Shown here one piece after another: positions 6,502 to 63,600 of a stretch of DNA of 64,000 nucleotides. Origin of the DNA: an uncultured Piscirickettsiaceae bacterium (GTDB lineage: Bacteria > Pseudomonadota > Gammaproteobacteria > Thiomicrospirales > Thiomicrospiraceae); the NCBI GenBank assembly GCA_964471975.1, contig CAYYIL010000006.1:13034-77033 (forward strand). The letters are read 5' to 3'. Each line of letters starts with the position of its first letter. Position 1 is the first letter of the stretch. The notes beneath the pieces were generated by a model, which was not told the DNA's origin, did not search any database, and saw only the letters and a program-made list of their open reading frames with translations. The position numbers and the translations under genes are program-made.

Positions 6502-6520
6502 AAAAAAATCGGGGACCCCC
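6502..6520 (-). repeat. Inverted 17/18 copy of the recurrent word (GGGGGTCCCCGATTTTTTT on the minus strand)
   Basis: Read directly. It lies between the convergent stops of the diguanylate cyclase (6476) and priA (6535). One C-to-T difference from the 18-mer found at five other sites. Confidence 0.85.
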
Positions 6521-6534
6521 TCTGACAGCGACAT

Positions 6535-8721
6535 TCAGTACAGGTCCACGGGGTCCACATCCAGCGACCACTGCACTGCCGAAGGAGTCTGTCGCCACAG
6601 TCCGTGCACCAGCCGGTGCAGCACCGCATGCAGCGGCTTGCGGCTCTCGCTCTGCAGCAGCAGCTGCCAGCGCCAGTAGCCCTGTCGCCGTGGCATGGGC
6701 GATGGCACCGGCCCCCAGAGGGCGACTGATCCGTCCGCCACCTGTGGCCAGGTCTGCATCGCATCGCGCAGCTGCATCAGAAAGACCTGCGCCGCCTCAC
6801 TGTGATGGCTGCGCACTCGCAGCAGCGCTTGATGGCTGAACGGCGGCAGCCCGGCCAGCTGGCGCTCCTGCAGCGCGGCCTCGGCGAAGGCCTCATAGCC
6901 TCCATCGGCCAGCGTGCGCAGCAGCGGATGATCGGGCTGATGGGTCTGCAATAGGATCTCACTGGCCTGCGCGCGCCGCCCGGCCCGCCCCGCCACCTGC
7001 ACAATCAGCTGCGCCATGCGCTCCGGCGCATGAAAATCGGGGGAAAACAGCCCCTGGTCCATCTCCAGCAGCCCCACCAGCGACACATTGGCGAAATCAT
7101 GCCCCTTGGCCAGCATCTGCGTCCCCAGCAAAATCATCGGCTCGCCCGCGTGCACCCTGGCCAGCTGTTCATCCAGTGCGCCCTTGCGCCGCGTGGTATC
7201 GCGGTCGATACGCACCACGGGCACCTCCGGAAAGGCCTCCGCCATGGCCGCTTCCAGCCGCTCGGTGCCCTGCCCCACGTGCAGCCAGTTGCCACTGCCA
7301 CACTGTGGGCAGGCAGGTGGGACCGGACGCTGATAATCGCAGTGATGGCAGTGCAGATGCTCGGGGCGCGCATGGTAGGTGAGGTGGGTGTCGCAGGCGG
7401 GGCAGTCGGCCTGCCAGCCACAATCGTGGCACATGAGCACCGGGGCAAAGCCGCGCCGGTTGAGAAACAGCAGCACCTGATGGCCCGCCTGCAGATGACG
7501 CGCCATGGCATGACGCAGCGGCGCCGATACGCCGGCCTCGATGCGTTCACCACGGATGTCCAGCAGTTTGATCCGCGGCAGGGCGCCGCCGCCTACACGT
7601 TCGGGCAGGGTCAGGTGCTGATAGCGCCCCGTCCGGGCATGGTGCAGGGTTTCCAGCGAGGGGGTGGCTGAGCCCAGCACCACGGGAATGCCCAGTTGCT
7701 GTGCTCGCCAGATGGCCATGTCGCGGGCGTGGTAGCGCACGCCCTCCTGCTGCTTGTAGGCGGGATCGTGTTCCTCATCCACGATGATGAGGCCCAGATT
7801 TTGAAAGCGGCTGAACAGTGCAGAGCGGGTACCCAGCGCCACCCGCGCCTGACCGCTGGCCAGCATCCACCAGCCGCAGTGGCGTTCGCTGTCGTTCAGG
7901 CCGGAGTGCAGCGCCACCACCGGCTCGCCCAGCCACTGCTCGAAACGGGCCACCATCTGTGGGGTCAGGGCGATTTCCGGCACTAGCACCAGCGCCTGTC
8001 TACCTGCCGCCAGCACCCGCTCCAGCAGGGCCAGATAGACCGCCGTCTTGCCGCTGCCGGTGACGCCCTGCAGCAGGTGAACACCAAATTGCCCGGTGGA
8101 CACGGCCTCGACCACCGCCTGCTGGACATCGGTCAGCCCATGCTGCTCGGCAGCGGGCACCGTGCGAGCCAGACAGGGCCGCTCCAGTGCTTCCACCCAG
8201 CCTCTCGCCTCGAAATTCCGCAATACCGAGCGCCAGTCGTCATGGATTGCCTTCAACGCCCCGGCATCGGCACGGCCCACCGCTTGTAGATGCGCCAGCA
8301 GCGTGCGCTGCCGCACCGCACGAGCAGGCAACTCCTCCACGGCCTGCTGCCGTCCGGCCTCGGTCAATTGCCACACCGGCAGGCCGGCCACTGCCATGGG
8401 CTTGCCCTGTCGCAACGCGACAGGCAGTGCCAGCTGCATCACCTCGCCCAGTGGCGCATGGTAATAGGCGGCCAGCCGCTGGACGAATGCCAGCAGCGTC
8501 TCATCCAGTACCGGTTCTTCATCCAAGACACGTTCGATCGGCTTGAGCCTGTCCGCAGACAGGGAATCGTCTGCAGGCACATCCAGCACCACGCCAATGA
8601 CCTTGCGCCGCTGCAGGGGGACTTCAACGCGCACGCCCGGTGCCACGGGGCCATCGCTGACATAGGTGAGCGCAAAGGGAAAGGGACCGGGCACGGCCAC
8701 GGCAATACGGTGTGAGGTCAT
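6535..8721 (-). CDS. priA: Primosomal protein N' (replication restart helicase PriA)
   Basis: Walker A GVTGSGKT, DEEHD box, a Cys-rich zinc-binding insert (CHDCGWQADCPACDTHLTYH...CHHCDY...CPQCGS) and helicase C-terminal motifs. 728 aa. Confidence 0.95.
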   Translation of the reverse strand: MTSHRIAVAVPGPFPFALTYVSDGPVAPGVRVEVPLQRRKVIGVVLDVPADDSLSADRLKPIERVLDEEPVLDETLLAFVQRLAAYYHAPLGEVMQLALPVALRQGKPMAVAGLPVWQLTEAGRQQAVEELPARAVRQRTLLAHLQAVGRADAGALKAIHDDWRSVLRNFEARGWVEALERPCLARTVPAAEQHGLTDVQQAVVEAVSTGQFGVHLLQGVTGSGKTAVYLALLERVLAAGRQALVLVPEIALTPQMVARFEQWLGEPVVALHSGLNDSERHCGWWMLASGQARVALGTRSALFSRFQNLGLIIVDEEHDPAYKQQEGVRYHARDMAIWRAQQLGIPVVLGSATPSLETLHHARTGRYQHLTLPERVGGGALPRIKLLDIRGERIEAGVSAPLRHAMARHLQAGHQVLLFLNRRGFAPVLMCHDCGWQADCPACDTHLTYHARPEHLHCHHCDYQRPVPPACPQCGSGNWLHVGQGTERLEAAMAEAFPEVPVVRIDRDTTRRKGALDEQLARVHAGEPMILLGTQMLAKGHDFANVSLVGLLEMDQGLFSPDFHAPERMAQLIVQVAGRAGRRAQASEILLQTHQPDHPLLRTLADGGYEAFAEAALQERQLAGLPPFSHQALLRVRSHHSEAAQVFLMQLRDAMQTWPQVADGSVALWGPVPSPMPRRQGYWRWQLLLQSESRKPLHAVLHRLVHGLWRQTPSAVQWSLDVDPVDLY

Positions 8722-8783
8722 AGCGGCTAAAATAAGCCAACTTGAAAAAATGTCAATCGCCTCAAGCCAGAGAGAAGTCCATC

Positions 8784-9347
8784 ATGCTGATCAACCTCAT
8801 TCGCTGGCACAACCGCCTGCAACAACGGCTGGGCCACGCCGTGGCCTGGCTGACACTGCTGCTGGCACTGCTGACCACGCTGGTGGTGGTGTTACGCTAC
8901 GGTTTCAATACCGGCTCCATTGCGCTGCAGGAAAGTCTCATTTACATCCACGCCACCGCCTTTATGCTGGGCGCGGCCTACACCTGGCTGCGCGACGCCC
9001 ATGTGCGCGTGGACATTTTCTATGCCCGCGCCAGTGAACGCACCCGAGCCTGGATCAATATCGCTGGCATCGTGCTGTTCGTGCTGCCCATGATGGGCTT
9101 CATCCTCTATGCCAGCTGGGATTATGTGGCGGCCAGCTGGGCCATTCACGAGCGCTCCACGGAAGACTCCGGCCTGCCGTATGTGTGGCTGCTGAAGACC
9201 CTGATTCTGATCATGCCGGTGCTGATGCTGCTGCAGGCGCTCAGCTGGCTGGGGCTGTGGTGGCTGACGCTCACGGCACCGGACAAGGCCGCACCGCTGT
9301 GGGCGGAAATTACACCCGAAAAAGATCTGGAACAGGAGGCGGTGTAA
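8784..9347 (+). CDS. TRAP transporter small permease subunit (DctQ family)
   Basis: Four predicted TM helices. ATG at 8784 follows GAGAGAAG; an upstream ATG at 8742 is also possible. The stop overlaps the large-subunit ATG (TAATG). Confidence 0.75.
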   Translation: MLINLIRWHNRLQQRLGHAVAWLTLLLALLTTLVVVLRYGFNTGSIALQESLIYIHATAFMLGAAYTWLRDAHVRVDIFYARASERTRAWINIAGIVLFVLPMMGFILYASWDYVAASWAIHERSTEDSGLPYVWLLKTLILIMPVLMLLQALSWLGLWWLTLTAPDKAAPLWAEITPEKDLEQEAV

Positions 9348-10720: not shown

Positions 10721-10721
10721 G

Positions 10722-12041: not shown

Positions 12042-12980
12042 TTACTGACCCAGTGCCTTGCGCTTTTTCTCGATCAGCTGCTTGATCAGCGGGGTCAGGA
12101 TCAGATCCATGGCATCAACGAAGTACTTGCTGTTGTACACCAGGGTATCGTCGCGCTGCATCCATGCGCCCGGAATCTGCTCGGCGATTTCCGGCAGATT
12201 GAGCTGATCCTTGATGCGCACGTGGGTCACCATCAGCGAATCTTCCGGTGCCGGCACGGTGGGCAGCGTACCCTCTTCGGTGGAGAACGGATCGGAGGTA
12301 TCGATCAGGGGCACACGGTGGAAGTTGATGTGCGTGCGGTGGAACTGAGGCACGATGTAGTCCACATAGTCGGGCATGCGCTCCAGGATGACCTTGTGCA
12401 CGTCTTCCACGGTATAGGGACGCTCGCTGGTGTCGCGGTAGATCTTCTGCATCCACTCGATGTTCACCGCCGGCGCCACGCCCACACCCAGATCCACGTA
12501 CTGGGCCACGTCGTAGGGCTTCTCGCCTTCATGCACATATTTCACCTTACGCACCATGCCGTGCAGACCTTCGTAGAACAGCAGGTCGGTACCTTCCGGC
12601 AGGTCTTCCCAGGGGGTGAACTCGCCCGGCTTCAGGTTGGTACCGAGGCGCTTGTTGTGGAATTCCGCTTCTTCCTCGGAGTGGATGTAGTAGCGACGCT
12701 TGCCGGTGCCGGTTTCACGGTAGGTCTTGAACAGCTCTTCCAGCTTGTCGAACAGGTTGGCGTGCTCGGAGAAGTGGGTCAGCGGACGGCAGCCCTTTTC
12801 CTTGCTCTCCGCCACTTTCTGGCGCATGGTAGCGCGGTCGTACTTGTGGAAGCTGTCGCCTTCGATAATGGCAGGGTTCAGGCCTTCTCGCTCAAAGATG
12901 TTTTCAAAGGCCTTTTTCACAAACGAGGTGCCGGCGCCGGATGAACCGACCACGGCCACGATGGGATGTACTGCAGACAT
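12042..12980 (-). CDS. prk: Phosphoribulokinase (Calvin cycle)
   Basis: HPIVAVVGSSGAGTSFV P-loop, then EGDSFHKYDR. Full-length similarity to proteobacterial PRK/CbbP; 312 aa. Confidence 0.9.
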   Translation of the reverse strand: MSAVHPIVAVVGSSGAGTSFVKKAFENIFEREGLNPAIIEGDSFHKYDRATMRQKVAESKEKGCRPLTHFSEHANLFDKLEELFKTYRETGTGKRRYYIHSEEEAEFHNKRLGTNLKPGEFTPWEDLPEGTDLLFYEGLHGMVRKVKYVHEGEKPYDVAQYVDLGVGVAPAVNIEWMQKIYRDTSERPYTVEDVHKVILERMPDYVDYIVPQFHRTHINFHRVPLIDTSDPFSTEEGTLPTVPAPEDSLMVTHVRIKDQLNLPEIAEQIPGAWMQRDDTLVYNSKYFVDAMDLILTPLIKQLIEKKRKALGQ

Positions 12981-13033
12981 GGCTGTCTCCTTGGTTAATC
13001 GGCGGGGATCTGCGTTTTACCGCCCCTGAAGAG

Positions 13034-13052
13034 GGGGTCCCCGACTTTTTTC
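13034..13052 (+). repeat. Copy of recurrent word GGGGGTCCCCGACTTTTT(T)
   Basis: Read directly. Intergenic, 54 bp upstream of the prk start codon and downstream of gyrB. The flank CCCCT-gaag-AGGGG (13024-13037) pairs with its 5' end. Confidence 0.9.
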
Positions 13053-13179
13053 AAAAGCAGTTTTTCTGTGTTGCGCCAGAGCCGAGAGATGCTCAGGCTT
13101 TTGCTTGATTTTGCGGAAATTTGAACCATTTTACACGGTTTTGCCACCCCTTTCGATGACAGCCCCGTGACAAGCGCGT

Positions 13180-15660
<2,481 letters not shown>

Positions 15661-15663
15661 TTA

Positions 15664-16704
15664 TCATAGCTTGAGGGTGTTCGCCTGCGCCACGCCCGGC
15701 AGCAGCGCCGCATCGGTGGCGGTCACCACGTGCTGAATGCCCTGCTCGGAAAGTAGCGCCAGCAGATGGGCACGATGGACAGCATCCAGTTCGGCGGGCA
15801 GGTCATCAATGAGCATCACCACGGGACGCCCGTGACGCTGCTGAAAGGCTTCCGCCTGCGCCAGCAACAGGGCACACACGAACAGTTTCTGCTGGCCGCG
15901 CGACAGGGCCACTTCCGCCTCCACCCCGTCGAAGCGAAAACGCACATCTGCGCGGTGCGGGCCAACGGTGGTGGTGCGCTGCTCGCTGTCCCGTGGCGCA
16001 CTTTCCTGCAACGCTTCGGCCAGTGTCAGGCCCTGGCGCCAGCCGCTGCGGTAGTGTACGCTCAGCGATGCGGTCACTTCGGGCAGCAACGCGCCAACAA
16101 ACCGCTGCAGCGGCGGCAGAATCTCATCCAGATAGGTCTGACGCATCGCATCCAGTGCGGTGCCATGTTCAACCAACAGGCCGTCCCAGATTCGCACTGC
16201 TTCCAGCGCCTGACCCTGACGCAACGCCTGATTGCGCTGCTTGAGGGCGCGTCGCCACGGGCGCCAGTGGGCCATGAAGTCGCTGAAGTGATAGAAGCCG
16301 CCCCAGTCCAGATACTGGCGGCGCAGTCGCGGCCCTTCCTCCAGCAGACGATGGGATTCGGGGGTCAACAGCTGCAGGGGGAGTTTTTCACTGAGCTGAG
16401 CCTGGGTCTCTACCGTCTGGCCATCCAGGCGCAGGTTGGTGGTCTGCAGGGTGCGCGACCAGCCAAGCCTGTGGCCATCCACCTGTGCAAACACGACCGC
16501 CTGATTCTGCTGATGACGAATGACCTGATTGAGGCGCGCGGTGCGGAAGGAACGCCCCGTGGCCAACAGCCACAGGGCTTCGACGATGGCTGTCTTGCCA
16601 CCAGCATTGGCGCCAAGCACCGCATTGAAACCGGGCGCAAGCGTCCAGTTCAGTTGCTCGAAGCAACGAAAGTTGGTCAGCGTCAGCTGTTCAAGACGCG
16701 CCAC
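15664..16704 (-). CDS. recF: DNA replication and repair protein RecF
   Basis: LTNFRCF, Walker A GANAGGKTAIVEAL, signature SRGQQK and Walker B VMLIDDLPAELD. Confidence 0.95.
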   Translation of the reverse strand: MARLEQLTLTNFRCFEQLNWTLAPGFNAVLGANAGGKTAIVEALWLLATGRSFRTARLNQVIRHQQNQAVVFAQVDGHRLGWSRTLQTTNLRLDGQTVETQAQLSEKLPLQLLTPESHRLLEEGPRLRRQYLDWGGFYHFSDFMAHWRPWRRALKQRNQALRQGQALEAVRIWDGLLVEHGTALDAMRQTYLDEILPPLQRFVGALLPEVTASLSVHYRSGWRQGLTLAEALQESAPRDSEQRTTTVGPHRADVRFRFDGVEAEVALSRGQQKLFVCALLLAQAEAFQQRHGRPVVMLIDDLPAELDAVHRAHLLALLSEQGIQHVVTATDAALLPGVAQANTLKL

Positions 16705-16718
16705 GTGTCAACGGGGCA

Positions 16719-17831
16719 TCAGAGCCGCATGGGCATGATGACGTGCTGGCAATGGGCCAGTTCGCCCTGCTCCTCGATGAGCAGCGCCGAGGTGGCATCC
16801 TTGAAGGCAAGGGTGACAAAGTCGTCCTGACTGGTATTGAGCACGTCCAGCAGATACTGCACATTGAAGGCAATCTCGAACTCGGGCCCGTCATATTCCA
16901 CCACCAGTTCTTCGTAGGCCTCGTCCTGTTCGCTGTTGTGGGCGGTAACGGTCAGCAGGCCCGGCTTGAGCGCCAGTCGCACCGACTTGAAGCGATCGCT
17001 GGAGAGGATGGTGGCGCGCTGCAGAATTGCCTTGAGCAGATTGCGGTCCGCCTTGAGCAGCAGCTCGTTGGCGGTGGGCAGCACGCGGCGATAGTCGGGG
17101 AAGCGCCCTTCGATCAGCTTGGAGGTAAAGGTCACGCCCTCCATCTGCACGGTCATCATGTTGCTGGCCAGACCCAGCTGCACCAGATCGTCGCTGTCGT
17201 GAACCAGCTTGATCAGCTCCAGCGCGCCCTTGCGCGGCAGAATGGCTTCCGTATGCGGCAGATTGTCGGTATCCAGCTGGGTTTCACAGGTGGAAAGACG
17301 GTGTCCATCGGTCGCCACCACGCGCAGCGCATGGTCATTGATATCGAACAGCATGCCGTTGAGATAGTAGCGCACGTCCTGCTGCGCCATGGCGAAATGG
17401 GTGTGTGAGAGAATGTGGCGCAGGCGGTTCTGCGGCACACTGAGGGTGACCGTCGCCTGAGTGAGATCCAGCAGCGGGAACTCATCGGCCGGCAGGGTGG
17501 ACAGCTTGAAGCGTGAACGCCCCGCACTGAGGGTGCAGCGCCCGCTTTCGTCAAAGCTGAGCTGAATCACCACGCCTTCCGGCAACGCGCGCACAATATT
17601 GAGCAGCTTGACCGCCGGCAGCGTGGTGGCGAACTGAGGCTGGTCGGCACTGTCCACCAGCACCTGGGCGCGTACCTCGATTTCCAGATCGGTGGCCGTC
17701 ACCGTCAGTGTCTGGTCCTGCAGCTGCAGCAGCACATTGCCCAGAATCACCTTGGTCTGACGTTTCTCTACCACCCCTGCAACGGTTTGCAGCGCCTTGA
17801 GCAACGTGTCCCGGCTGATGGTCAGGTTCAT
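16719..17831 (-). CDS. dnaN: DNA polymerase III beta sliding clamp
   Basis: 370 aa with MNLTISRDTLLKALQTV...ATDGHRL...VIMPMRL. Canonical dnaA-dnaN-recF-gyrB order. Confidence 0.97.
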   Translation of the reverse strand: MNLTISRDTLLKALQTVAGVVEKRQTKVILGNVLLQLQDQTLTVTATDLEIEVRAQVLVDSADQPQFATTLPAVKLLNIVRALPEGVVIQLSFDESGRCTLSAGRSRFKLSTLPADEFPLLDLTQATVTLSVPQNRLRHILSHTHFAMAQQDVRYYLNGMLFDINDHALRVVATDGHRLSTCETQLDTDNLPHTEAILPRKGALELIKLVHDSDDLVQLGLASNMMTVQMEGVTFTSKLIEGRFPDYRRVLPTANELLLKADRNLLKAILQRATILSSDRFKSVRLALKPGLLTVTAHNSEQDEAYEELVVEYDGPEFEIAFNVQYLLDVLNTSQDDFVTLAFKDATSALLIEEQGELAHCQHVIMPMRL

Positions 17832-17842
17832 GCAGTCTCCCC

Positions 17843-19198
17843 TCAGTTGGTCAGTATCTTGATCAAATTATTGAAGTCTTCTTCCAGGCGTGCATCTTCG
17901 CTGCGCAGTTTTTTCATCTGCCGCACCGCATGCAGCACGGTGGTGTGATCACGACCGCCAAAGGCGTCACCGATTTCGGGCAGGCTGTGGCTGGTGAGCT
18001 CCTTCGCCAGTGCCATGGCCATCTGCCGGGGGCGGGCCACGTTGCGGCTGCGCCGCTTGGAGAGCAGCTCACGCACCGGCAGCTTGTAGTAGTCCGCCAC
18101 CGTTTTCTGAATGTTCTCAAGGGTAATGCGCTTTTCCTGGATGCGCAACAGGTCCTTGAGCGCCTCCTTGGTGAGCTCCAGCGTAATCGGCTGCTGGGTG
18201 AACTGGGCGTAGGCAATCACGCGCTTGAGGGCCCCTTCCAGATCGCGCACATTGCCGCGCAGGCGCTTGGCGATAAAAAACGCCACCTCTTCCGGCAGAC
18301 GCACATCGGCTTCGGCGGCCTTCTGCAGCAGAATGGCCACGCGCATTTCGAATTCGGGCGGCTCCACCTGAATGGTCAGCCCCCACCCAAAGCGGGACTT
18401 GAGGCGATCCTCCAGCCCGTCCACCTCCTTGGGGAAACGGTCGGAGGTGAGGATGACCTGCTTGTTGCCTTCGAGCAGGGTATTGAAGGTGTGGAAGAAC
18501 TCTTCCTGCGACTGCTCCTTGTTGGCGAAGAACTGGATGTCATCGATCAGCAGGGCGTCCAGCGAACGGTAAAAGCGCTTGAACTGGTCGATCTTGTTGT
18601 GGCGCAGAGCATTGACCATGTCCGCCACAAAACGCTCGGAGTGCAGATAGACCACCCGTGCATCGGGGTTGTTCTTCAGCATGGCATTGCCGATGGCGTG
18701 CATCAGGTGCGTCTTACCCAGCCCGACGCCGCCATAGATGAAGAAGGGGTTGTAGCTGCCGCCGGGGTTTTCTGCCACCTGCCGCGCGGCTGCGGCTGCG
18801 AGCTGGTTGGCCTTGCCTTCCACAAAATTCTCGAATGTGAATGCAGGATTGAGATTGTGGCGAATGCCGGCCGTCTTGGGCTTCTCCACCTCCACCACAG
18901 CCGCCTCGCCGGCAGGCCGCGCCTCCGCCTTCGGCGCCGGTTCAGCCACCAGGTTGTAATCGCCACCTACTTCCACCACCACCTCTGGCGTGTTCTGCGG
19001 CTTCACCTGCGCCACGGCAGCGCGAATCTGCGGCAACAGCTTGCGATTGATCCAGTCCTGCATGTGGGAGGTGGGCGCGATAAGTCGCAGGGTATTGCCC
19101 TCCTCCTTCACCTCCAGCGGCCGGATCCAGGTGAAGAACTGCATTTCATTGAGCTGATCCTGCAGAAGCGAAAGGCTTTGGTTCCATGTGGTGCTCAA
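17843..19198 (-). CDS. dnaA: Chromosomal replication initiator DnaA
   Basis: AAA+ [24 protein letters not shown], and the domain [10 protein letters not shown] DnaA-box-binding signature. 451 aa. Confidence 0.98.
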
Positions 19199-25567: not shown

Positions 25568-27423
<1,856 letters not shown>

Positions 27424-29220: not shown

Positions 29221-29307
29221 GCGGATGTGGCGGAACTGGTAGACGCGCAGGGTTCAGGTCTCTGTGGGGTAAAACCCGTGTGAGTTCGACTCTCACCATC
29301 CGCACCA
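29221..29307 (+). tRNA. tRNA-Leu (anticodon CAG), CCA encoded
   Basis: Acceptor stem GCGGATG/CATCCGC, anticodon stem CAGGG/CTCTG with loop TTCAGGT, a long variable arm, T-arm GAGTTCGACTCTC and a 3' CCA. Confidence 0.9.
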
Positions 29308-33882: not shown

Positions 33883-33901
33883 GGGGGTCCCCGACTTTTT
33901 T
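33883..33901 (+). repeat. Copy of recurrent word GGGGGTCCCCGACTTTTT(T)
   Basis: Read directly. Intergenic, 35 bp upstream of the permease start. The flank 33870-33879 pairs with it: 9 bp with one bulge and an AAA loop. Confidence 0.9.
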
Positions 33902-33933
33902 ACAGCCACGTTTTTCACGATTTTTCGCACGCA

Positions 33934-33958
33934 CAAAAAAGCCCGCCAAAAGCGGGCT
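33934..33958 (-). terminator. Intrinsic terminator after cbpA
   Basis: AGCCCGC-caaaa-GCGGGCT, with TTTTTTGTG on the minus strand. Confidence 0.75.
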
Positions 33959-33971
33959 GAAAGGGGTTCTA

Positions 33972-34919
33972 TCAGCTTGGGAAGTGCGCCCGCGGGTTGA
34001 AGGGCATTTTCTTCGCCATTTCTTCGTAGAACGCCTTTTTCCCGTCGGTGTCGGCCGGCGGGGTATGAATCTGCAACACCACATACTGGTCCCCCGGGAT
34101 CTTGCCCAGTCCACGCCCCTTGATGCGCAGCTTCTTGCCGGACTGACTGCCGGGCGGGATCTTCAGCGCCACCTTGCCCTTGAGGGTGGGCACTTCCACC
34201 CTGGCGCCGAGGGCAGCTTCCCACGGCGTGATGGGCAGATCCAGGTAGATATCGTCGCCCCTCACCTTGTAAAGCGGGTGATTCTGCAACTCTACCTCGA
34301 GATAGAGGTCGCCGTTGGGGCCGCCACCGATACCCGGGCTACCCTGTCCAGCCAGACGGATGCGCTGGCCTTCACGGATCCCTGCCGGGACCTTCACCTT
34401 GATCTGCCGCGTCCTGTGGGTGACGCGGCCGTATTCATCCGCCTCCGGCACCTGCAGCGTCAGGGTACGCTCGGCACCGTTGACGGCGTCTTCCAGCGGC
34501 ACCAGAATCTTGACCACCTGATCCTGACCGCGGGCGCGATAGCCACCCTGACCACCGCCAAAACCGCCCCGGCGGAAGCCGCCACCAAACAAGTTTTCGA
34601 AAAAGTCGCTGAAATCATGGGCGCCCCCCCCGGCGTGCCCCCCGCCAAAGCCGCCGAAACCACCGCCGAACATCTCTTCGAACTGACTGGGGTCAAACTG
34701 CTGCCCCTGCTGCCAGTTGGCGCCCAGCTGATCATACATCTTGCGCTTTTCCGGATCGCCGAGCACCTCGTAGGCCTCATTGATCTCCTTGAACTTGGCC
34801 TCGTCACCACCCTTGTCGGGGTGATATTTGGCGGCCAGGCGGCGGAACGCCTTCTTGATCTCGGCTTCGCTGGCGTCGCGGCTGACACCGAGTATGTCGT
34901 AGTAATCCTTGTATTCCAT
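33972..34919 (-). CDS. cbpA: Curved-DNA-binding DnaJ-class co-chaperone (CbpA type, no zinc finger)
   Basis: J domain with [31 protein letters not shown], a G/F-rich linker, no CxxCxGxG repeats and DnaJ C-terminal domains. Confidence 0.85.
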
Positions 34920-45282: not shown

Positions 45283-47478
45283 TTACAGGCGGATCAGTTT
45301 CGCCACCGCCAGCATGAGCCACTTGCTGCCATGCTCATCGAAATGCACCTGCACCCGTGCCTGTGGACCATCCCCTTCCAGTCCGATGACAATACCCTCA
45401 CCGAAACGGTCGTGCAGCACGCGGTCGCCGATGGCGAAAGGGGGGTCCCCGACTTTTTGCAAGCCGCTTTTCCGGCCGCCGGCGCCAAAACCGCCTCCAA
45501 GCGCGCCTGCAGGGCGTACGGAGGCTTTAGGACGGATTTCTTCCACGCAGTCTGGCGGCAGTTCACTCAAAAAGCGCGACGGCAGTGGAAAGCGCTCCTG
45601 CCCGTGCCAGCGGCGCTTCTCGCACCAGGTCATCACCAGTTCTTCCCGCGCACGGGTAATGCCCACGTAGGCGAGACGACGCTCTTCTTCCAGCCGTGCC
45701 GGGTCGTCGATGGACTGCTGCGACGGGAACAGCCCCTCTTCCATGCCGGTCATGATCACCAGCGGAAACTCCAGCCCCTTGGCGGCGTGCAGGGTCATCA
45801 CCTGGACGCAGCTCTCCCACTGCGCCGCCTGATGCTCGCCCGCCTCCAGTGCCGCCTGATTGAGGAACGCCTGCAGGGGCGTTTCGGCGGCGGCGCCCTC
45901 ATCGGGACGGAACTGCGCCGCGGCATTGATCAGTTCGTCCAGGTTCTCCAGCTTGGACTGCGCCTGCTCGCTCTTGTGCTTGTCCTTTTCCAGGTGCGCC
46001 TGCAGGCCGGAGCGACTGATGACGGTCATCACCTGCTGGTCCAGCGGCATGTCGGCGGTGTCGGCCGCCAGCTGGTCGATCAAATCGAGAAAGCCTTTCA
46101 CTGCCCCGGCCGCTCGAGCGGTGAGGCGGCCGCTTTCCAGCAGCCGCTGCGCCGCCTGCCACAGGGAGGTGCCCTGCGCCAGTGCTTCGGCGCGCAGGGT
46201 TTCCAGCGTACGCGCGCCGATGCCGCGTGGCGGGTTGTTGATGACGCGGTCGAAGCTGGCATCATCGTCGCGGTTGAGCAGCAGGCGCAGGTAGGCGAGC
46301 ACGTCCTTGATTTCCGCACGCTCGTAAAAGCGCAAACCGCCATAGACACGATAGGGAATACCGGCGCGCAGCAGCGCCTGTTCCAGCACCCGCGACTGGG
46401 CGTTGGAGCGGTACAGCACCGCCACGTCATACCGGCTGCCGCCACGTTCGAGCCAGCGCTCCACCTGGCGCACAACAAAATCCGCCTCCTCCAGTTCGTT
46501 GAAGGCGCGATAGATGCGGATGGGCTCGCCCTGCTCACCAGCGGTCCACAGGTTCTTGCCCATGCGGCCGCTGTTGTGGGCAATCAGCGTATTGGCGGCC
46601 CTGAGAATGGTGGCGGTGGAGCGGTAGTTCTGCTCCAGCCGGATCACGCGCACGTCTGCAAAGTCGTCGCTGAAACGGTGCACATGCTCCACGCGTGCGC
46701 CGCGCCAGCCATAGATGGACTGGTCGTCGTCGCCCACCACGAACAGCCGCCCGGTGCCGCCGGCCAGCACCCGCAGCCAGGCATACTGCAGCGCATTGGT
46801 GTCCTGAAACTCGTCCACGAGGATGTGCTGAAAGCGCTGTTGGTAGTGCGCCAGCAGCTGCGGGTTTTTCAGCCACAGTTCATGGGCACGCAGCAGCAGT
46901 TCGGCAAAATCCACCAGCCCGTTCTGCTGGCACTGCTGCTCATAGGCGTGGTACACGCGCAGCAGGGTTTCCACATAGGGGTTGTGCTGCGGATCGATAT
47001 GGGCAGCGCGCAGTCCCTCTTCCTTGTTTCCGTTGATGAAGCCCTGCACCTGACGCACCGGCCACTGCTGCTCGTCCAGCTCCAGATCACGCAACAGGCG
47101 CTTGAGCAGGCGCTTCTGGTCATCACTGTCGATCACCTGAAAATTCTGCGCCAGCCCGGCCTCGCGCCAGTGCTGGCGCAGCAGGCGGTAGGCGATGCCG
47201 TGAAAGGTGCCCAGCGTGAGGCCTTCCGCCTTGCCGCCGATCAGCTCGAAGGAGCGCCCGCGCATTTCGCTGGCGGCCTTGTTGGTAAAGGTAACCGCAA
47301 GGATGTTGTAGGGCGACACGCCCAGCGCCTCCACCAGCCAGCCAATGCGGTGCACCAGCACGCGCGTCTTGCCGGAGCCGGCCCCGGCGAGCACCAGCGC
47401 GTGGCAGTCCACCGACAAAGTGACCGCCTCGCGCTGGGCATCATTGAGATCATTAAGGAGAAAAGAGATGTCGTCCAT
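45283..47478 (-). CDS. uvrD: DNA helicase II (UvrD)
   Basis: LNDAQREAV, Walker A AGAGSGKTRVL, VDEFQDTN, and the C-terminal GDRVLHDRFGEGIVIGLEG. ATG at 47478 gives 732 aa. Confidence 0.9.
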   Translation of the reverse strand: MDDISFLLNDLNDAQREAVTLSVDCHALVLAGAGSGKTRVLVHRIGWLVEALGVSPYNILAVTFTNKAASEMRGRSFELIGGKAEGLTLGTFHGIAYRLLRQHWREAGLAQNFQVIDSDDQKRLLKRLLRDLELDEQQWPVRQVQGFINGNKEEGLRAAHIDPQHNPYVETLLRVYHAYEQQCQQNGLVDFAELLLRAHELWLKNPQLLAHYQQRFQHILVDEFQDTNALQYAWLRVLAGGTGRLFVVGDDDQSIYGWRGARVEHVHRFSDDFADVRVIRLEQNYRSTATILRAANTLIAHNSGRMGKNLWTAGEQGEPIRIYRAFNELEEADFVVRQVERWLERGGSRYDVAVLYRSNAQSRVLEQALLRAGIPYRVYGGLRFYERAEIKDVLAYLRLLLNRDDDASFDRVINNPPRGIGARTLETLRAEALAQGTSLWQAAQRLLESGRLTARAAGAVKGFLDLIDQLAADTADMPLDQQVMTVISRSGLQAHLEKDKHKSEQAQSKLENLDELINAAAQFRPDEGAAAETPLQAFLNQAALEAGEHQAAQWESCVQVMTLHAAKGLEFPLVIMTGMEEGLFPSQQSIDDPARLEEERRLAYVGITRAREELVMTWCEKRRWHGQERFPLPSRFLSELPPDCVEEIRPKASVRPAGALGGGFGAGGRKSGLQKVGDPPFAIGDRVLHDRFGEGIVIGLEGDGPQARVQVHFDEHGSKWLMLAVAKLIRL
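45440..45458 (+). repeat. Copy of recurrent word (G)GGGGGTCCCCGACTTTTT inside uvrD
   Basis: Read directly. On the coding (minus) strand it is read as K-V-G-D-P-P, in the linker before the conserved UvrD C-terminal motif. Confidence 0.9.
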
Positions 47479-53392: not shown

Positions 53393-54410
53393 CTTGAACC
53401 TCCATCAATAGCTTTTTCACCGGCGCGGGCACGGGCAGCGCCATGGCGTCCTGCAGCGGCCACCATGCGCCCGCATCCGGTGTCGGTTGTGTCTCGTGAG
53501 TGTGCCACAGATACGGCGCAATATCCAGATGAAAGTGGCTGAAGGTATGGCGAAAGGGCTTCAACGGTACACCACGAGGTGATTCCACCAGCGGAAAGCC
53601 ATGCAGCCCGCCCCACAGTCCCGTCGCCTCATTGGACACCAACCACACCTGCCCCTCGCGCAGGCAAATCTGCCAGATGGCCTCACGCACCGGCAAGGTC
53701 CTGCGGGGACGCGGCGTGGGCAGCTGCGCCGTGCGACCGGTGCGCACCGCCACGCAGTCCGCCCGAAACGGACAGGCATCACAATCAGGCCTTGTGCGCG
53801 TACACACCGTTGCCCCCAGATCCATCTGCGCCTGCGTATAGTCGGCCATGACCGCAGTGTCCTGCGGCAGCAACTGTTCGGCCAGCTGCCACAGCCGGAT
53901 TTCCACAGCGCGCTCGCCCGGCCAGCCCTCGATTCCGAACACGCGACACAATACCCGCTTCACATTGCCGTCCAAGATGGCCTCACGCTGGCCATAGGCC
54001 TGCGCCACAATGGCTGCTGCGGTGGAGCGCCCGACCCCCGGCAAGGCTTCCCAGCCAGCCCGATCCGTGGGAAAGCCGCCCTGCGTCACAATCTGCTGCG
54101 CCGCCCGGTGCAGATTACGACCGCGGGCGTAGTAGCCCAGCCCACTCCACAACGCCAGCACCTTGGACACATCGGCCGCAGCCAGCGCCTCCACGTCCGC
54201 AAAGCGCGCCATGAAACGCTCAAAATAAGGGATCACCGTCTGCACCTGCGTCTGCTGCAGCATCACCTCCGCCACCCACACTCGGTAGGGCGTGCGTGGG
54301 TGCTGCCATGGCAAATCATGGCGGCCGTGCCGCCGGTGCCACGCCAGCAGCCGCTGGGCAAAGCTCTTAACAGGGGGGTCCCCGACTTTTTCAGAATCGA
54401 TTTTTTTCAT
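53298..54410 (-). CDS. mutY: A/G-specific adenine glycosylase MutY
   Basis: [16 protein letters not shown], Hh[13 protein letters not shown], the Fe-S cluster loop [17 protein letters not shown] and the NUDIX-like C-terminal [12 protein letters not shown]. The 3' tail overlaps yggX by 95 nt. Confidence 0.9.
54373..54391 (+). repeat. Copy of recurrent word (G)GGGGGTCCCCGACTTTTT inside the first codons of mutY
   Basis: Read directly. On the coding strand it is read as K-V-G-D-P-P within the non-conserved N-terminal extension. Confidence 0.9.
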
Positions 54411-54485
54411 TCGCCGCGCTGCACTTCAGCAAACCCTTAAATCCGCTATACTATAGTGATTCACGCACCCACTGACACGAATTCC

Positions 54486-54686
54486 ATGCAGATTATTCTC
54501 AACGGCGAACCCTACGAACTGAAAGATGGCGCCACCGCCGCGGAGCTGGTGCAGCAGCTGGAACTGACTGGCAAGCGCATCGCCATGGAGCGCAATGAAA
54601 CCATCGTGCCGCGCAGCCAGTATGAACAGACCGTGCTGCAGCCGGGCGACCGCATCGAAATCATTCACGCCGTCGGCGGCGGCTGA
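54486..54686 (+). CDS. thiS: Thiamine biosynthesis sulfur-carrier protein ThiS
   Basis: MQIILNGEPYEL...IEIIHAVGGG with the C-terminal GG. 66 aa from the ATG at 54486. Confidence 0.9.
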   Translation: MQIILNGEPYELKDGATAAELVQQLELTGKRIAMERNETIVPRSQYEQTVLQPGDRIEIIHAVGGG

Positions 54687-58756: not shown

Positions 58757-59617
58757 ATGAAAAGCATGACCGCCTTTGACCGCATCCAGTGCAGCTACGA
58801 CTGGGGGCAGGCTACCTGGGAGATCAAATCTGTCAATCACCGCTATCTGGAGCTGCATTTTCGTCTGCCGGAAGGCTGGCGCGAGCTGGAAATGGCATTG
58901 CGCGAGCGCGCCAAACAGCAGCTGGCCCGCGGCAAGGTGGAGTTCGCCCTCACCCTTACGCTGGATGCCGGCCTGCAGACCCCCAGCCTCAATGAGGCGG
59001 TCCTGGACGGCCTGATTGAAGTCATTCGCGACGTGCGCCTGCGCCTGCCTGCGGCCAGCCACCTGAATGCACTGGAAATCCTCAAATGGCCCGGTGTCAT
59101 TGCCGAACCACAGCTGAACCGTGAACAGATGCTGGCAGATCTGACCGCCTGTGCCGAGCAGGCACTGCAACAGCTCAATGCTGCCCGTGAGCGCGAAGGC
59201 GCAGCACTGAAGGCCCTGATCGAGCAGCGCCTCGATGCCATGGAAAAACTGATCGAGCCCTTGACCGATGTGGTGCCCGAAGCGGTGCAGAGCTACGAAA
59301 CCCGCCTGCGGGAACGCATCGCGCAGCTGCAGGCCGACGTGGACGAACAGCGGCTGGCACAGGAGGTGGCGCTGATGGCGCAGAAGCTGGACGTGGCCGA
59401 AGAGCTCGACCGCCTGCGCACCAATATCAAGCTGGTGCGCGAGGCGCTCCAGCAGGAAGGCCCCATCGGCCGCCGGCTGGACTTTCTCATGCAGGAACTG
59501 AACCGCGAGGCCAACACCCTCGGCTCCAAGGCCAGCGACATGCGCCTGACCGAAGCAGCCGTGGAGCTGAAGGTGCTGATCGAACAGATGCGCGAACAGG
59601 TGCAGAACATCGAATAG
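58757..59617 (+). CDS. yicC: YicC-family stress-induced protein
   Basis: MKSMTAFDR...WEIKSVNHRYLE and the C-terminal DFLMQELNREANTLGSKA...KVLIEQMREQVQNIE. Confidence 0.9.
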   Translation: MKSMTAFDRIQCSYDWGQATWEIKSVNHRYLELHFRLPEGWRELEMALRERAKQQLARGKVEFALTLTLDAGLQTPSLNEAVLDGLIEVIRDVRLRLPAASHLNALEILKWPGVIAEPQLNREQMLADLTACAEQALQQLNAAREREGAALKALIEQRLDAMEKLIEPLTDVVPEAVQSYETRLRERIAQLQADVDEQRLAQEVALMAQKLDVAEELDRLRTNIKLVREALQQEGPIGRRLDFLMQELNREANTLGSKASDMRLTEAAVELKVLIEQMREQVQNIE

Positions 59618-59976: not shown

Positions 59977-60001
59977 TCGCGATCCCATTATCGTGGTTCC
60001 C

Positions 60002-60027
60002 AACGCCCGGCTCTGCCGGGCGTTTTG
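60002..60027 (+). terminator. Intrinsic terminator
   Basis: AACGCCCGG-ctctg-CCGGGCGTT followed by TTG. Confidence 0.65.
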
Positions 60028-60096
60028 CGTTGCGGGCTTGTCATCCCTCAACTAACCCGTTAATATCGTGCCGTTTTTCTGCATGCAGGCACGCCC

Positions 60097-62550
60097 GTGA
60101 CCGAACCGACTCAATCACCGCTGCTGGACGACGCCACCGGCGAAACACCGCCGCCAGCCCCCTCTGAAAAACCGACCCAAAAGCCTGCGCGCAAGAAACG
60201 GCGCTGGCTGTGGCTGACCGCGCTCGTCCTGTTCGTTCTCCTTCCTGCTTCGCTGGTGGGCTGGTACGCCGTCACCATCTACCCCACCCTGCCGGACGCC
60301 TCGGAACTCAAGGATGTGCGCTATCAGGTCCCCCTGCGCATCCTGACCCGCGACGGCAAACTGATCAGTGAGATCGGTACCCAGAAACGCATCCCGCTCA
60401 GCTACGACCAGATTCCGCAGCGCATGACCCAGGCGATCATCGCCGCCGAAGACGAAAACTTCTTCTCCCACCCCGGCATCGACCCCAAGGGGCTGGCCCG
60501 TGCCGTCTATCAACTGATTACCACCGGGCACAAGAAGTCGGGCGGCTCCACCATTACCATGCAGGTGGCGCGCAACTTCTTCCTGTCGCGCAAGAAGACC
60601 TTTCTGCGCAAGCTCAACGAAATCGTGCTGGCGCTGAAAATCGAGCACCAGCTGTCCAAGCCGGAAATTCTCGCCCTCTATCTCAACAAGATTTTCCTCG
60701 GCCACCGCAGCTACGGTGTCGCCGCCGCCGCGCAGACCTATTACGGCAAGGACATTCACGATCTGACGCTGGACGAATACGCCATGCTGGCCGGCCTGCC
60801 CAAGGCGCCGTCCGCCTACAATCCCATCAACAATCCCACCCGCGCCAAGCTGCGGCGCAACTATGTGCTGCGGCGCATGCACGAACTGGGCTTTATCAGC
60901 GAAGCCGAAATGCGCGAGGCGATGGCAAAGCCGGTGCACGCCAAACTCTCCGGCGCACGCATCGAAGTGGAAGCCGGCTATGTGGCTGAAATGGCACGCG
61001 CCTGGGCGGAAGCACGTTATGGCCAGAAGGCACTGGAGATGGGCCTGACCATCATCACCAGTCTTGACAGCCACCTGCAGCAGGCGGCCAATGACGCAGT
61101 GCGCCGCGGCCTGCTCGACTACGAACGCCGCCACGGCTATCGCGGCCCTGCCGGTCATCTTGCCCCCGCCGAAATGGTGGATGATGAGGCCGTTCAAAAG
61201 GCACTGGATGCCATGCCGGCCCCCGGCCACCTCAAGCCGGCCGTGGTTGTCGAGGTCAACAAGAAAGCAGCGCGCGCCCGCCTGGCTGACGGCACCGAGG
61301 TGACGCTGCCTTTTGATCCTGCCCTCAACTGGGCCGCCCCCTTTATTGACGTCAATCACAAGGGGCGCCCGCCCGCCTCCCCCTTCGAAGTGGTCAAGGT
61401 GGGCGATCTGATCTACGTGGAGCACCGTGATGATCAGTGGCTGCTGGCGCAGCTCCCCAAAGTGCAGGGCGCGCTGGTGTCCATCGACACCCATGATGGC
61501 CGTGTGCTGGCGCTGGTAGGCGGCTTTGACTACTTTGCCAGCAAATTCAACCGCGCGGTGCAAGGCATGCGCCAGATCGGCTCCAATATCAAGCCGTTCC
61601 TCTATTCGGCTGCGCTGGACAAGGGCTACACCGCCGCCACCATCATCAACGATGCACCGGTGGTCTTCCACGACAAGGCGCTGGAAGACGTATGGCGCCC
61701 GGAAAACGACTCCGGCCGCTTCTATGGCCCGACACGCCTGCGCGTAGCGCTGACCCACAGCCGCAACCTCGTGTCGATCCGCATTCTGCAGGACATCGGC
61801 ATCAAGTACGCCATCGACTACATCAGCCGCTTCGGCTTTCCCAGGGAGGAACTGCTGCGCCACGCCGACCTGTCGCTGGCGCTGGGCACGCCCCAGTTCA
61901 GCCCATGGCAGGTGGTGCGCGGCTACAGCACCTTTGCCAATGGCGGCTACCTCATCGAGCCGTGGTTGATCCAGACGGTAAAGGACTTCAATGGCAAGCC
62001 CGACTATGAAGCCCAGCCCAAGACTGCCTGCTCGCCGGAAGCCCCCTGTCTCGCCGACGACCCGCTGGCGGCCCCACAGGTCATCTCGCCCCAGAACGCC
62101 TATATCATGACCACCATCATGCAGGACGTTATCCGCCATGGCACCGGCCGGCGCGCGCGGGTGCTCAAGCGCAACGACATTGCCGGCAAGACCGGCACCA
62201 CCAATGACCAGAAGGACGCCTGGTTCTCCGGCTTCAATCCCAAAATCGCCACCACCGTCTGGGTCGGCTATGACGAACCGGCCCCACTGGGTCGCCGTGA
62301 ATTCGGCAGCCGCGCTGCCCTGCCCATCTGGATCGACTACATGCGCGTCGCACTGGCCGACCTGCCCGAACTGCCGTTCCCCAAGCCCACGGGACTGGTG
62401 GAAGTGCCCATCGATCCCAAGACCGGCAAGGCGCTGCCCCCGGGCACGCCCGGCGCCAAGCTTGAAATCTTCCGTGAAGCCTTTGCGCCCAAGGTACCGG
62501 ACGCCAACCAGCAGGAGATGGAAAACTCCATTAACGAACTGTTCCAGTAA
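60097..62550 (+). CDS. mrcA: Penicillin-binding protein 1A (bifunctional glycosyltransferase/transpeptidase)
   Basis: GT51 motifs EDENFFSHPGID, GGSTITMQVARN and RKLNE. Transpeptidase motifs SNIKP, SRN and KTGTTND. GTG start, then an N-terminal TM. Confidence 0.93.
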   Translation: MTEPTQSPLLDDATGETPPPAPSEKPTQKPARKKRRWLWLTALVLFVLLPASLVGWYAVTIYPTLPDASELKDVRYQVPLRILTRDGKLISEIGTQKRIPLSYDQIPQRMTQAIIAAEDENFFSHPGIDPKGLARAVYQLITTGHKKSGGSTITMQVARNFFLSRKKTFLRKLNEIVLALKIEHQLSKPEILALYLNKIFLGHRSYGVAAAAQTYYGKDIHDLTLDEYAMLAGLPKAPSAYNPINNPTRAKLRRNYVLRRMHELGFISEAEMREAMAKPVHAKLSGARIEVEAGYVAEMARAWAEARYGQKALEMGLTIITSLDSHLQQAANDAVRRGLLDYERRHGYRGPAGHLAPAEMVDDEAVQKALDAMPAPGHLKPAVVVEVNKKAARARLADGTEVTLPFDPALNWAAPFIDVNHKGRPPASPFEVVKVGDLIYVEHRDDQWLLAQLPKVQGALVSIDTHDGRVLALVGGFDYFASKFNRAVQGMRQIGSNIKPFLYSAALDKGYTAATIINDAPVVFHDKALEDVWRPENDSGRFYGPTRLRVALTHSRNLVSIRILQDIGIKYAIDYISRFGFPREELLRHADLSLALGTPQFSPWQVVRGYSTFANGGYLIEPWLIQTVKDFNGKPDYEAQPKTACSPEAPCLADDPLAAPQVISPQNAYIMTTIMQDVIRHGTGRRARVLKRNDIAGKTGTTNDQKDAWFSGFNPKIATTVWVGYDEPAPLGRREFGSRAALPIWIDYMRVALADLPELPFPKPTGLVEVPIDPKTGKALPPGTPGAKLEIFREAFAPKVPDANQQEMENSINELFQ

Positions 62551-62718
62551 CCGCACCGTCACCGTTTTGGCGCTACAATCCTTCTGGAACGCTGCAAGGC
62601 AACCGCGCACGCCAGGCTCTGCGTGAGTTGCCCATGCACTGTCCACCGTACCTGCAATGCATTGGATCGGCACGGGAAGGGCGGTGTTGCAACGTCGTCA
62701 TCATCATGGGAGAAAACC

Positions 62719-63600
62719 ATGGACTGGAAGGCACTGCTCAAGGCCGTCGTCGAAGCAGGCGGCCCGACACTCACCCTGATTTCCGCACAACCGGTGGGTG
62801 GTGGCGACATCCACGACGCTTGGCGCCTGCACTGCGAGGAGGGTGACTACTTCCTCAAGACCAACCGACCCGCCAGCCTGCCCCTGTTCCGCTGCGAAGC
62901 CCACGCTCTGAAGGTAATTCACGCCACCCATACCATCCGCTGCCCCCGCCCCTTTGCCTACGGCGAAGGGGCCGGCCGCGCCTTTCTGCTGATGGAATAC
63001 CTCCCGCTGGGCACCCGCGGCAGCGAGCGGGACCGCGGTCGCGCCCTGGCGCACATGCACCACCACCTGAGCGAGGACGGGCGTTTCGGCTGGTTTGAAG
63101 ACAACTACATCGGTCATACGCTGCAACCCAACGGCTGGGATGCCGACTGGGTGAATTTCTACGGAGAGAAGCGCCTGCACCATCAGCTGAGGCTGGCCCA
63201 GGCCGCAGGCGGGGGTCCCCGACTTTTTGAAAAGGGCGAAAAACTGATCGACGCACTGCCTGCCTTTTTCAGCACCTATACGCCCAAACCGAGCCTGCTG
63301 CACGGCGATCTGTGGGGCGGCAACAGCGCCTTCACCGAGGATGGCGAACCGGTTATTTACGATCCGGCCAGCTATTACGGCGACCACGAAGCCGACATCG
63401 CCATGACAGAACTGTTCGGCGGCTTTGGCAGCGACTTCTATGCCGCCTACCGCGAAGTCTTCCCGCTGGATGACGGCTATCGCGTGCGCCGCGACCTCTA
63501 CAACCTCTATCACCTGCTCAATCACTTCAACCTGTTCGGTGGGGGCTACGCCCGCAGTGCCGAACGCACCATAGACACTCTGCTCGCGGAGGTGCTATGA
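62719..63600 (+). CDS. Fructosamine/ketosamine-3-kinase family protein
   Basis: ATG at 62719. FLKTN, PSLLHGDLWGGN and the C-terminal YNLYHLLNHFNLFGGGY are typical of the family. Confidence 0.85.
   Translation: MDWKALLKAVVEAGGPTLTLISAQPVGGGDIHDAWRLHCEEGDYFLKTNRPASLPLFRCEAHALKVIHATHTIRCPRPFAYGEGAGRAFLLMEYLPLGTRGSERDRGRALAHMHHHLSEDGRFGWFEDNYIGHTLQPNGWDADWVNFYGEKRLHHQLRLAQAAGGGPRLFEKGEKLIDALPAFFSTYTPKPSLLHGDLWGGNSAFTEDGEPVIYDPASYYGDHEADIAMTELFGGFGSDFYAAYREVFPLDDGYRVRRDLYNLYHLLNHFNLFGGGYARSAERTIDTLLAEVL
63211..63228 (+). repeat. Copy of recurrent word GGGGGTCCCCGACTTTTT inside the fructosamine-kinase gene
   Basis: Read directly. Translated on the + strand as G-G-P-R-L-F in a variable loop. Confidence 0.9.

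Follow-up and report, generated by a model that had tools for sequence, protein, structure and literature searches.

The 18-base word and its abundance

This study concerns a stretch of 64,000 nt (the window) from contig CAYYIL010000006.1 of an uncultured Piscirickettsiaceae bacterium (GCA_964471975.1, positions 13,034-77,033 of the forward strand). According to Pfam, its genes include dnaA-dnaN-recF-gyrB, priA, uvrD and mutY. Within and between the genes of this window lie five exact + strand copies of the word GGGGGTCCCCGACTTTTT and one minus-strand copy with a single mismatch, and no further site in the window matches the word at up to three mismatches. Dinucleotide shuffling predicts 0.03 matches against the six observed, and none of 100 shuffles reached six. 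The 9-mer GGGGTCCCC is restricted, within the window, to these same six copies. The word is part of a larger element, best viewed as a composite signal that is approximately 135 bp long, reaches from -4 to about +130 and is made up of the 18-bp word and a one-sided arm.

The copies had been noticed in an earlier sequence-only reading, which also took the word to be over-represented. Both observations hold, apart from one coordinate: the copy placed at 13034-13051 truly occupies 13033-13050. The inverted copy with 17 of 18 matches was recovered on the minus strand at 6503-6520, where GAT stands for GAC.

Word occurrence was scanned in one genome per species, and the count for Sulfurivirga caldicuralii DSM 17737 is a lower bound. 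This genome (1.67 Mb, five contigs, approximately 208 tiles of 8 kb) is about 90% identical to the window over the overlapping parts, so that the window presumably belongs to a different species of Sulfurivirga. It carries at least 69 copies, spread over 60 tiles. Nine of these 60 tiles hold two copies, consistent with a Poisson density of about 0.3 per tile, and the share of tiles with a match is similar across all five contigs (0.20-0.35), so that the distribution is roughly uniform. The density is one copy per 10.7 kb in the window and, as a lower bound, about one per 15-24 kb in DSM 17737. Beyond these genomes, the same scan gave single matches in each of five unrelated metagenome-assembled genomes, which we read as chance, and there were no matches among 2.9 million viral contigs. 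Over-representation in the own genome and in a close relative is one of the features by which uptake sequences are recognised. Another is an excess of perfect over mismatched copies, and this is also found here: 480 kb of DSM 17737 hold 68 perfect copies, three with one mismatch and none with two. An assembly or adaptor artefact was considered and rejected: independent assemblies show the word at orthologous sites, and it is read in frame as protein.

Five of the six window copies lie on one strand, which had suggested a replication- or repair-polar word such as Chi, KOPS (FtsK orienting polar sequences) or Ter. In DSM 17737 the orientations are balanced, with 32 + and 37 - copies. The GC skew of its tiles is clearly bimodal, and orientation is independent of it: tiles of positive skew hold 20 + and 22 - copies, tiles of negative skew 12 + and 15 - copies (Fisher p=0.81). 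The 5:1 bias in the window is therefore a chance effect of sampling. The skew result refutes the Chi/KOPS/Ter interpretation, and 18 bp with an arm is unlike the polar words of 5-8 nt; the probability left to a polar word is practically nil. In two places of DSM 17737 the word forms inverted pairs (18+25+18 nt) between convergent genes (L019, 7557-7617, and L023, 1886-1946).

A one-sided phased arm

A profile of 75 copies shows that conservation does not end with the word. The 5' flank has the consensus aAAG at -4 to -1 and the 3' flank tAAAgnC at +19 to +25. A second tract follows at +29 to +33, which is T5 in about 70% of the copies and A5 in about 22%. Further downstream, A/T-rich peaks are centred at approximately +45, 56, 67, 77, 87, 97, 108, 118 and 128, with G/C-rich troughs between them. 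The peaks recur with a period of 10-10.5 bases and are filled by A tracts as well as T tracts; the resulting pattern is an alternation of the type (A/T)3-4 N (G/C)4-5, which persists for about ten turns. It is confined to the T-tract side of the word. The information content amounts to 2.2 bits at -4 to -1, 34.7 bits in the word, 8.7 bits at +19 to +33 and another 8.7 bits at +34 to +130. Beyond +131 it is zero, and no distal second motif was found past the arm. The earlier statement that the flanks are alike for 2-3 nt at most was thus wrong.

The array is a property of nearly every copy. In leave-one-out comparisons, the correlation with the mean A/T profile over +34 to +130 has a mean of 0.29, with values above zero for 73 of the 74 copies; the corresponding mean on the upstream side is 0.03. 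Copies that run through coding sequence and the remaining copies show the array alike. A set of 810 control T5 sites from the same DNA is flat, and the chance match in an unrelated genome has no phased arm. Pairwise comparison of the flanks revealed no sequence similarity between copies, except for true orthologues and the two inverted pairs. Since the A/T versus G/C pattern is kept and the sequence is not, the pattern is a physical property of the DNA that is under selection, and not a relic of a common ancestral sequence. The 25-nt centres of the two inverted pairs are related (93% over a 29-nt match that reaches into the second word), and both pairs are devoid of phased arms.

A wedge model puts the predicted median bend of the arm at 43 degrees, against 23 degrees for upstream flanks and random 120-mers (p=2e-12). 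The curvature thus exceeds that of controls, and the alternation at 10-10.5 bp, which goes on for some ten turns, is classic for DNA wrapped around protein. This brings in a first rival explanation, an anchored wrapping site. An intracellular chromosomal protein (a nucleoid-associated protein, a topoisomerase or a condensin loader) would read the word, and the neighbouring 110 bp would be bent or wrapped by it; a chromosome would possess on the order of 100 such fixed architectural points.

Dialects of the word in related genomes

Relatives were collected via their UvrD and GyrB homologues; they share about 71-80% DNA identity with the window and supply just 2-5 word copies per lineage. The word described so far, version A, accounts for 77 copies in the window and DSM 17737, where copies of versions B and C number zero. 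Versions B (GGGGTCTCCCC) and C (GGGTCCCCC-GAAATTTT) are confined to other clades at approximately 75% nucleotide identity, and they are mutually exclusive with A. The individual lineages have their own forms: GGGGGTCTCCCC-NN-TTTTTTCAAA in ERR14788555 (four copies), agaaGGGGTCTCCCCCTTTTTTT in BRAZ22 and GCA_054025775 (five copies), CAACGGGGYCTCCCCCATTTTTGCC in JOHN19 (two copies), and GGGTCCCCC(Y)RAAATTT in GCA_015661715 and GCA_054027095. Lineage-specific variants that follow the phylogeny, as seen here with 2-5 copies per relative lineage, are a further hallmark of uptake sequences. Most dialect copies have a phased arm too: their correlations lie at 0.25-0.52, and the 99th percentile of the null distribution is 0.25.

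The comparison of orthologous positions, which the sequence-only reading had proposed as a check, was made with these relatives. The linker codons of uvrD hold a version of the word in the window and in four of five relative lineages, and the start of mutY holds one in the window, L068 and L071. In the gyrB-prk spacer a version occurs in the window and in all five relatives examined, in the same orientation; four of them carry a dialect and L034 carries word A. The site after priA is occupied in the window and L074, and a site after moaC in three dialect-B genomes. Those letters of the word that differ between clades are invariant within a clade, which implies that the recognising factor differs between clades and that the sites have tracked it. 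In evolutionary terms, the element behaves like a self-recognition sequence whose reading factor is specific to a clade.

For a wrapping site, the stability of the positions over long divergence is a favourable observation. The concerted, clade-specific change of the word is not: it needs the specificity of the protein to co-evolve rapidly, which is typical in self/non-self systems but out of the ordinary for a housekeeping nucleoid protein. Concerted change at orthologous sites is likewise not predicted by copy-and-paste elements.

Three further observations may be added. The contig L034 (JALSZZ010000430.1, 1632 nt), binned as part of a Mariprofundaceae metagenome-assembled genome, is 85.8% identical to window positions 12388-14025 and is probably a mis-binned contig of a Sulfurivirga relative. 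L066 and L074 both belong to GCA_015661715.1, which is labelled S. caldicuralii, has dialect C and shares about 75% DNA identity with the window; as the type strain DSM 17737 has dialect A, this species label looks too broad. In a metagenome scan for dialect B, most of the 14 single matches listed lie on contigs of very different G+C and resemble small terminators. Whatever its function, the all-or-none 18-mer lends itself as a practical marker: contigs of this group can be binned with it, and recombination among them can be traced.

Gene context and the origin of coding copies

Genes were called by codon usage. This caller is crude and overlooked mutY, so the following context counts are conservative lower bounds; strict context rules left 27 of 74 copies unclassified. 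Two arrangements recur. At least 20 copies follow a co-oriented gene, beginning 0-34 nt past its stop codon (for 14 copies the distance is at most 5 nt), and at least 16 copies are located antisense in 5' regions with the GGGGG end toward the start codon. The arm falls in the spacer in both cases. Stop-to-stop open frames span 26 of the 69 DSM 17737 copies (approximately 38%), 17 of them antisense and nine sense. The dominant reading frame is AAA GTC GGG GAC CCC, encoding K-V-G-D-P, and in-gene copies are situated toward gene ends or in variable loops. That three window copies lie inside genes, as noted before, was borne out for uvrD, mutY and a fructosamine-kinase-like gene.

The copies behind stop codons raise the possibility of an unusual 3'-end element or transcription terminator, in which the word and its T tract would end or stabilise transcripts. 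The two inverted pairs between convergent genes fit this idea, and so does dialect B: GGGG-TCT-CCCC followed by T7 resembles a mini intrinsic terminator, could form a 4-bp stem, and has terminator-like matches in unrelated metagenomes. Dialect A has no stable hairpin, with folding z-scores from -0.85 to +0.98 over the six window copies, and is therefore no intrinsic terminator of the usual kind. Nor would a terminator be expected antisense in 5' regions or inside open reading frames (ORFs), where about 38% of the copies lie, some of them in frame on the sense strand. Rfam has no match at the word sites, and the 110-bp arm is a property of double-stranded DNA that is found in coding DNA too. 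Taken together, we regard a terminator as very improbable. A structured RNA was rejected as well: the six copies fold without a common structure, and a tRNA gene (29221-29304, +) is the sole Rfam match in the window.

How did words come to lie in genes? When the codons of uvrD from six lineages are aligned, no indel falls at the word. In the kinase, GGPRLF aligns without gaps to GDSAIY of the Arabidopsis homologue 6oid, and the loop is variable in other homologues. These alignments, which cover the two genes to which the gap test was applied, show that coding copies arose by substitution and not by insertion. The same test has been used before to show that the uptake signal sequences (USS) did not arise by insertion (PMC1626085).

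This result bears on a selfish repeat as the source of the word, i.e., an element like the repetitive extragenic palindromic (REP) sequences and their paired form (REPIN), or the relic of a miniature inverted-repeat transposable element (MITE), that is moved by a dedicated enzyme and conserved in its 18-bp end alone. So sharp a consensus is characteristic of elements that are copied (PMC1626085), and the copy at 33883 is located in a segment of about 75 nt that is missing from outgroups. In L074 (approximately 18580-18640) the dialect-C word stands in tandem after priA, TAAGGGTCCCCCGAAT TAAGGGTCCCCCGAAATTTTT, the sole tandem arrangement seen. The start of dialect B, GGGGTCT, is presumably similar to the ends of Tn3-family elements. 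Against all this, one third of the copies lie in genes without indels, there is no hairpin, the flanks agree in their A/T versus G/C pattern alone and not in sequence, and the word changes in concert between clades and is absent from the viral contigs. Pfam scans of the ORFs examined gave no transposase, in line with the sequence-only reading, which had seen neither a transposase nor a convincing target duplication and had also set the word apart from REP and MITE elements; this distinction stands, given the lack of a hairpin and of a conserved interior and the non-insertional origin of the coding copies. REP/REPIN systems with their REP-associated tyrosine transposase (RAYT) were dismissed in view of the missing stable fold, the 26 of 69 copies in ORFs and the mere two inverted pairs, and a MITE in view of the lack of flank similarity and indels. 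A selfish repeat is, in our opinion, very improbable.

Genome maintenance is represented by seven of 28 in-gene hosts, namely uvrD, mutY, mutS, uvrC, lexA, dnaX and a mutT-like NUDIX gene, which gives a binomial p of 0.001-0.018 against assumed baselines of 6-10%. In addition, recN and priA lie directly upstream of further copies.

A possible uptake signal

Of the readings considered we favour, tentatively and with less than even confidence, a self-DNA uptake signal for natural transformation, of the type of the Haemophilus USS. The sequence-only reading had offered an uptake-like word or a polar or architectural one. The likeness to uptake sequences has become stronger through the scarcity of mismatched copies, the dialects at orthologous sites, the frame preference, the phased AT tracts and the enrichment in genome-maintenance genes; the polar option has fallen, and a site for a nucleoid protein is still among the candidates.

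In the proposed mechanism, the word would be bound by a receptor on the cell surface that belongs to the type IV pilus or the competence machinery. The phased tracts would bend the adjoining DNA in one plane, so that it could be drawn as a loop through the pore of the outer membrane. Such DNA would be taken up preferentially and then recombine with its homologous sites, which would drive perfect copies to build up wherever the genome tolerates them. If the specificity of the receptor drifts, the words at existing sites would follow by point mutation, and clade-specific dialects would result. Inferred in this scheme are an uptake receptor as the binding partner, the help of the arm in passage, and drive, not selection at each site, as the force that maintains the copies.

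Candidate competence genes exist in the group: DSM 17737 has dprA and a type IV pilin-like gene in L063, and a secretin cluster is present in L069 of a relative. L063 (2476-7560) contains dprA, topA and a short ORF followed by a copy of the word, with the pilin-like gene, which has an N-terminal methylation motif, in convergent orientation. Pfam detected no competence genes in the window, and no genome-wide search for comEA, comEC or pilQ was made.

Several points weigh against an uptake signal. The genes dprA, pilins and secretin are too widespread to discriminate between the explanations, and we found no literature on repeats or transformation in Sulfurivirga or Thiomicrospira. Uptake sequences characteristically reach about one copy per kb and up to 1% of the genome, and the word does not come near this density. 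At approximately one copy per 10-24 kb, many DNA fragments would be without a signal. At 18 bp, the word has twice the length of any known uptake core. The scarcity of mismatched copies goes beyond that of the known uptake systems, which could instead mean strong selection at each site. For USS and for the DNA uptake sequences (DUS) of Neisseriaceae, phased arrays as long as about ten turns are not known; they are more typical of protein-wrapped DNA. Finally, the segment of about 75 nt around the copy at 33883, missing from three more distant relatives, looks inserted.

Some of these points would suit the wrapping site. Purifying selection at each site fits the near-absence of decayed copies, and at least 69 copies in DSM 17737 resembles the numbers of Noc, SlmA or RIP sites. 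Other observations are hard to accommodate. As a rule, intracellular proteins have degenerate sets of binding sites (PMC1626085). The word is asymmetric and no palindrome, and its copies are spread roughly uniformly over the contigs; it thereby differs from parS and the Noc, SlmA and matS sites, which are palindromic and regionally confined. There is no obvious rationale for an enrichment in repair genes. An anchored wrapping site is the main rival of the uptake signal, although we consider it unlikely. Slightly less probable is its extension to a new chromosomal architectural unit in place of an uptake signal, in which a fast-evolving, clade-specific protein on the 18-bp anchor would wrap about 110 bp, rotationally positioned and to one side, at some 100 fixed sites per genome, essential genes included. 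If a wrapping site were nevertheless true, it would represent a new class of bacterial chromosome-organising signal. The rest of the probability belongs to explanations outside those considered here.

Copies in the window

The six copies and their arms are compiled in Table 1.

Table 1. Word copies and phased arms in the window. Correlations refer to the mean A/T profile.
Feature	Position	Strand	Remarks
Word, one mismatch (GAT for GAC), GGGGGTCCCCGATTTTTT	6503..6520	-	14 nt past priA stop, co-oriented with priA
Phased arm of 6503 copy (+19..+130)	6373..6502	-	Correlation 0.31; overlaps GGDEF gene 3' end
Exact word, gyrB-prk spacer	13033..13050	+	Antisense to both genes; 52 nt upstream of prk start codon
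Phased arm of 13033 copy	13051..13180	+	Correlation 0.35; fills spacer up to gyrB stop codon
Exact word	33883..33900	+	Between terminator of cbpA/dnaJ-like gene and amino-acid permease gene, antisense to both
Phased arm of 33883 copy	33901..34030	+	Correlation 0.19
Exact word inside uvrD	45441..45458	+	Antisense, K-V-G-D-P-P, about codon 704-710 of listed ORF
Phased arm of 45441 copy	45459..45588	+	Correlation 0.27; wholly uvrD coding sequence
Exact word in mutY codons 7-13	54374..54391	+	Antisense; sole plausible ATG at 54410
Phased arm of 54374 copy	54392..54521	+	Correlation 0.16; extends into mutY-thiS divergent spacer
Exact word in fructosamine-kinase-like gene	63211..63228	+	Sense frame GGPRLF, codons 197-202
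Phased arm of 63211 copy	63229..63358	+	Correlation 0.11; coding; second tract GAAAAA encodes E-K

The mismatched copy is placed between convergent genes, priA and a GGDEF gene. In uvrD, the word is located in the hypervariable linker ahead of the C-terminal tudor domain, and the uvrD and mutY copies encode the same peptide, KVGDPP. The copy at 33883 is conserved in DSM 17737 (L053).

The permease gene beside the latter copy (32526-33848) is intact in the window. About 1.1 kb of it is missing in DSM 17737 (L053, approximately 4380-4651), where an in-frame TAG also stands close to the start, and two relatives have the gene as two separate ORFs (L068, 17134-18292; L069, 20354-21653). This looks like the repeated decay of one and the same gene. 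In the mutY-thiS spacer, TATACTATAGTGATTCAC (54425-54450) is faintly similar to the ends of the neisserial Correia element, which is probably a coincidence.

The dnaA-dnaN-recF-gyrB cluster occupies the minus strand at 13180-19198. GC skew is negative over all 64 kb, apart from the 16-20 kb bin (+0.01), without a sustained reversal at dnaA, and the replication origin therefore probably lies away from dnaA. The PBP1A gene mrcA is found at 60097-62550, preceded by a yicC-like gene (58757-59617). The pilMNOPQ operon, which is often divergent from mrcA in related bacteria, is not present beside it.

Comparison with known systems

The alternation of A/T and G/C at the helical repeat over about 100 bp is shared with strong gyrase sites and nucleosome-positioning sequences. 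Those signals are symmetric and have no exact 18-bp anchor, whereas the array described here is strictly one-sided (0.03 upstream, 0.29 downstream). REP sequences and bacterial interspersed mosaic elements (BIME) of enterobacteria are sites for gyrase, IHF and RAYT. Tens to hundreds of REPs occur per genome, often just downstream of genes, and they are tied to DNA-bending or -wrapping proteins; number and location are the same here. REP and BIME elements differ in that they are imperfect palindromes with hairpins, strictly extragenic and mostly paired, while the word is unfolded, about 38% intragenic and paired twice.

To our knowledge, only two bacterial families have a documented sequence-specific uptake of DNA. 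The two known signals evolved independently, and the receptor of one is still debated. The word shares neither the Neisseriaceae core GCCGTCTGAA nor the Pasteurellaceae core AAGTGCGGT and would, being unlike both, constitute an independent third family.

The DUS of Neisseriaceae resemble the element in their lineage-uniform dialects, in having about one third of their copies in ORFs, in their intergenic inverted pairs and in the enrichment in genome-maintenance genes. Eight DUS dialects are known, uniform within a lineage and congruent with phylogeny (PMC3630211). The share of copies in ORFs ranges from 34 to 65% for USS and DUS (34.5% for the DUS of N. meningitidis), and the enrichment in genome maintenance, reported for both, has been discussed and questioned (PMC2817400). 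DUS differ from the element in their length of 10-12 bp, the lack of a phased AT arm, their number of about 1,900 copies per genome and a shared CTG core that is absent from the word. They are read by the minor pilin ComP, of which no orthologue was identified here.

The closest parallels exist to the USS of Pasteurellaceae. These consist of a specific core followed by helically spaced AT tracts on one side, their perfect copies outnumber mismatched ones, coding copies originated by point mutation, and core types are specific to clades; frame and orientation preferences, location at gene ends and the absence of strand polarity are common to both as well. The USS cores comprise a Hin-type (AAGTGCGGT) and an Apl-type (ACAAGCGGT), i.e., two subclade types, and their perfect copies outnumber the singly mismatched ones (PMC1626085). 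Their AT-rich segments, about a helical turn apart after the core, are thought to aid bending or kinking during uptake (PMC1626085, PMC7811141). Both USS and DUS are reported to favour certain frames and orientations, gene termini and residues of low conservation (PMC2817400, PMC2346458), and they occur at a density of approximately one per 1.2 kb (PMC2817400). The differences are equally clear. The core of the USS is unrelated and has 9 bp instead of 18, the density of the element is 10-20 times lower, about ten AT tracts reaching +130 take the place of two, and the host is a thermophilic sulfur oxidiser near S. caldicuralii and not a member of the Pasteurellaceae. If the proposed uptake function is true, a third, unrelated system would join the two known ones, and watermarks of self-DNA would be more widespread than thought. 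It would come from free-living thermophilic sulfur oxidisers, with several dialects already visible, and its unusually explicit bent-DNA arm would allow a direct test of the view that entry into the uptake pore requires the DNA to be folded.

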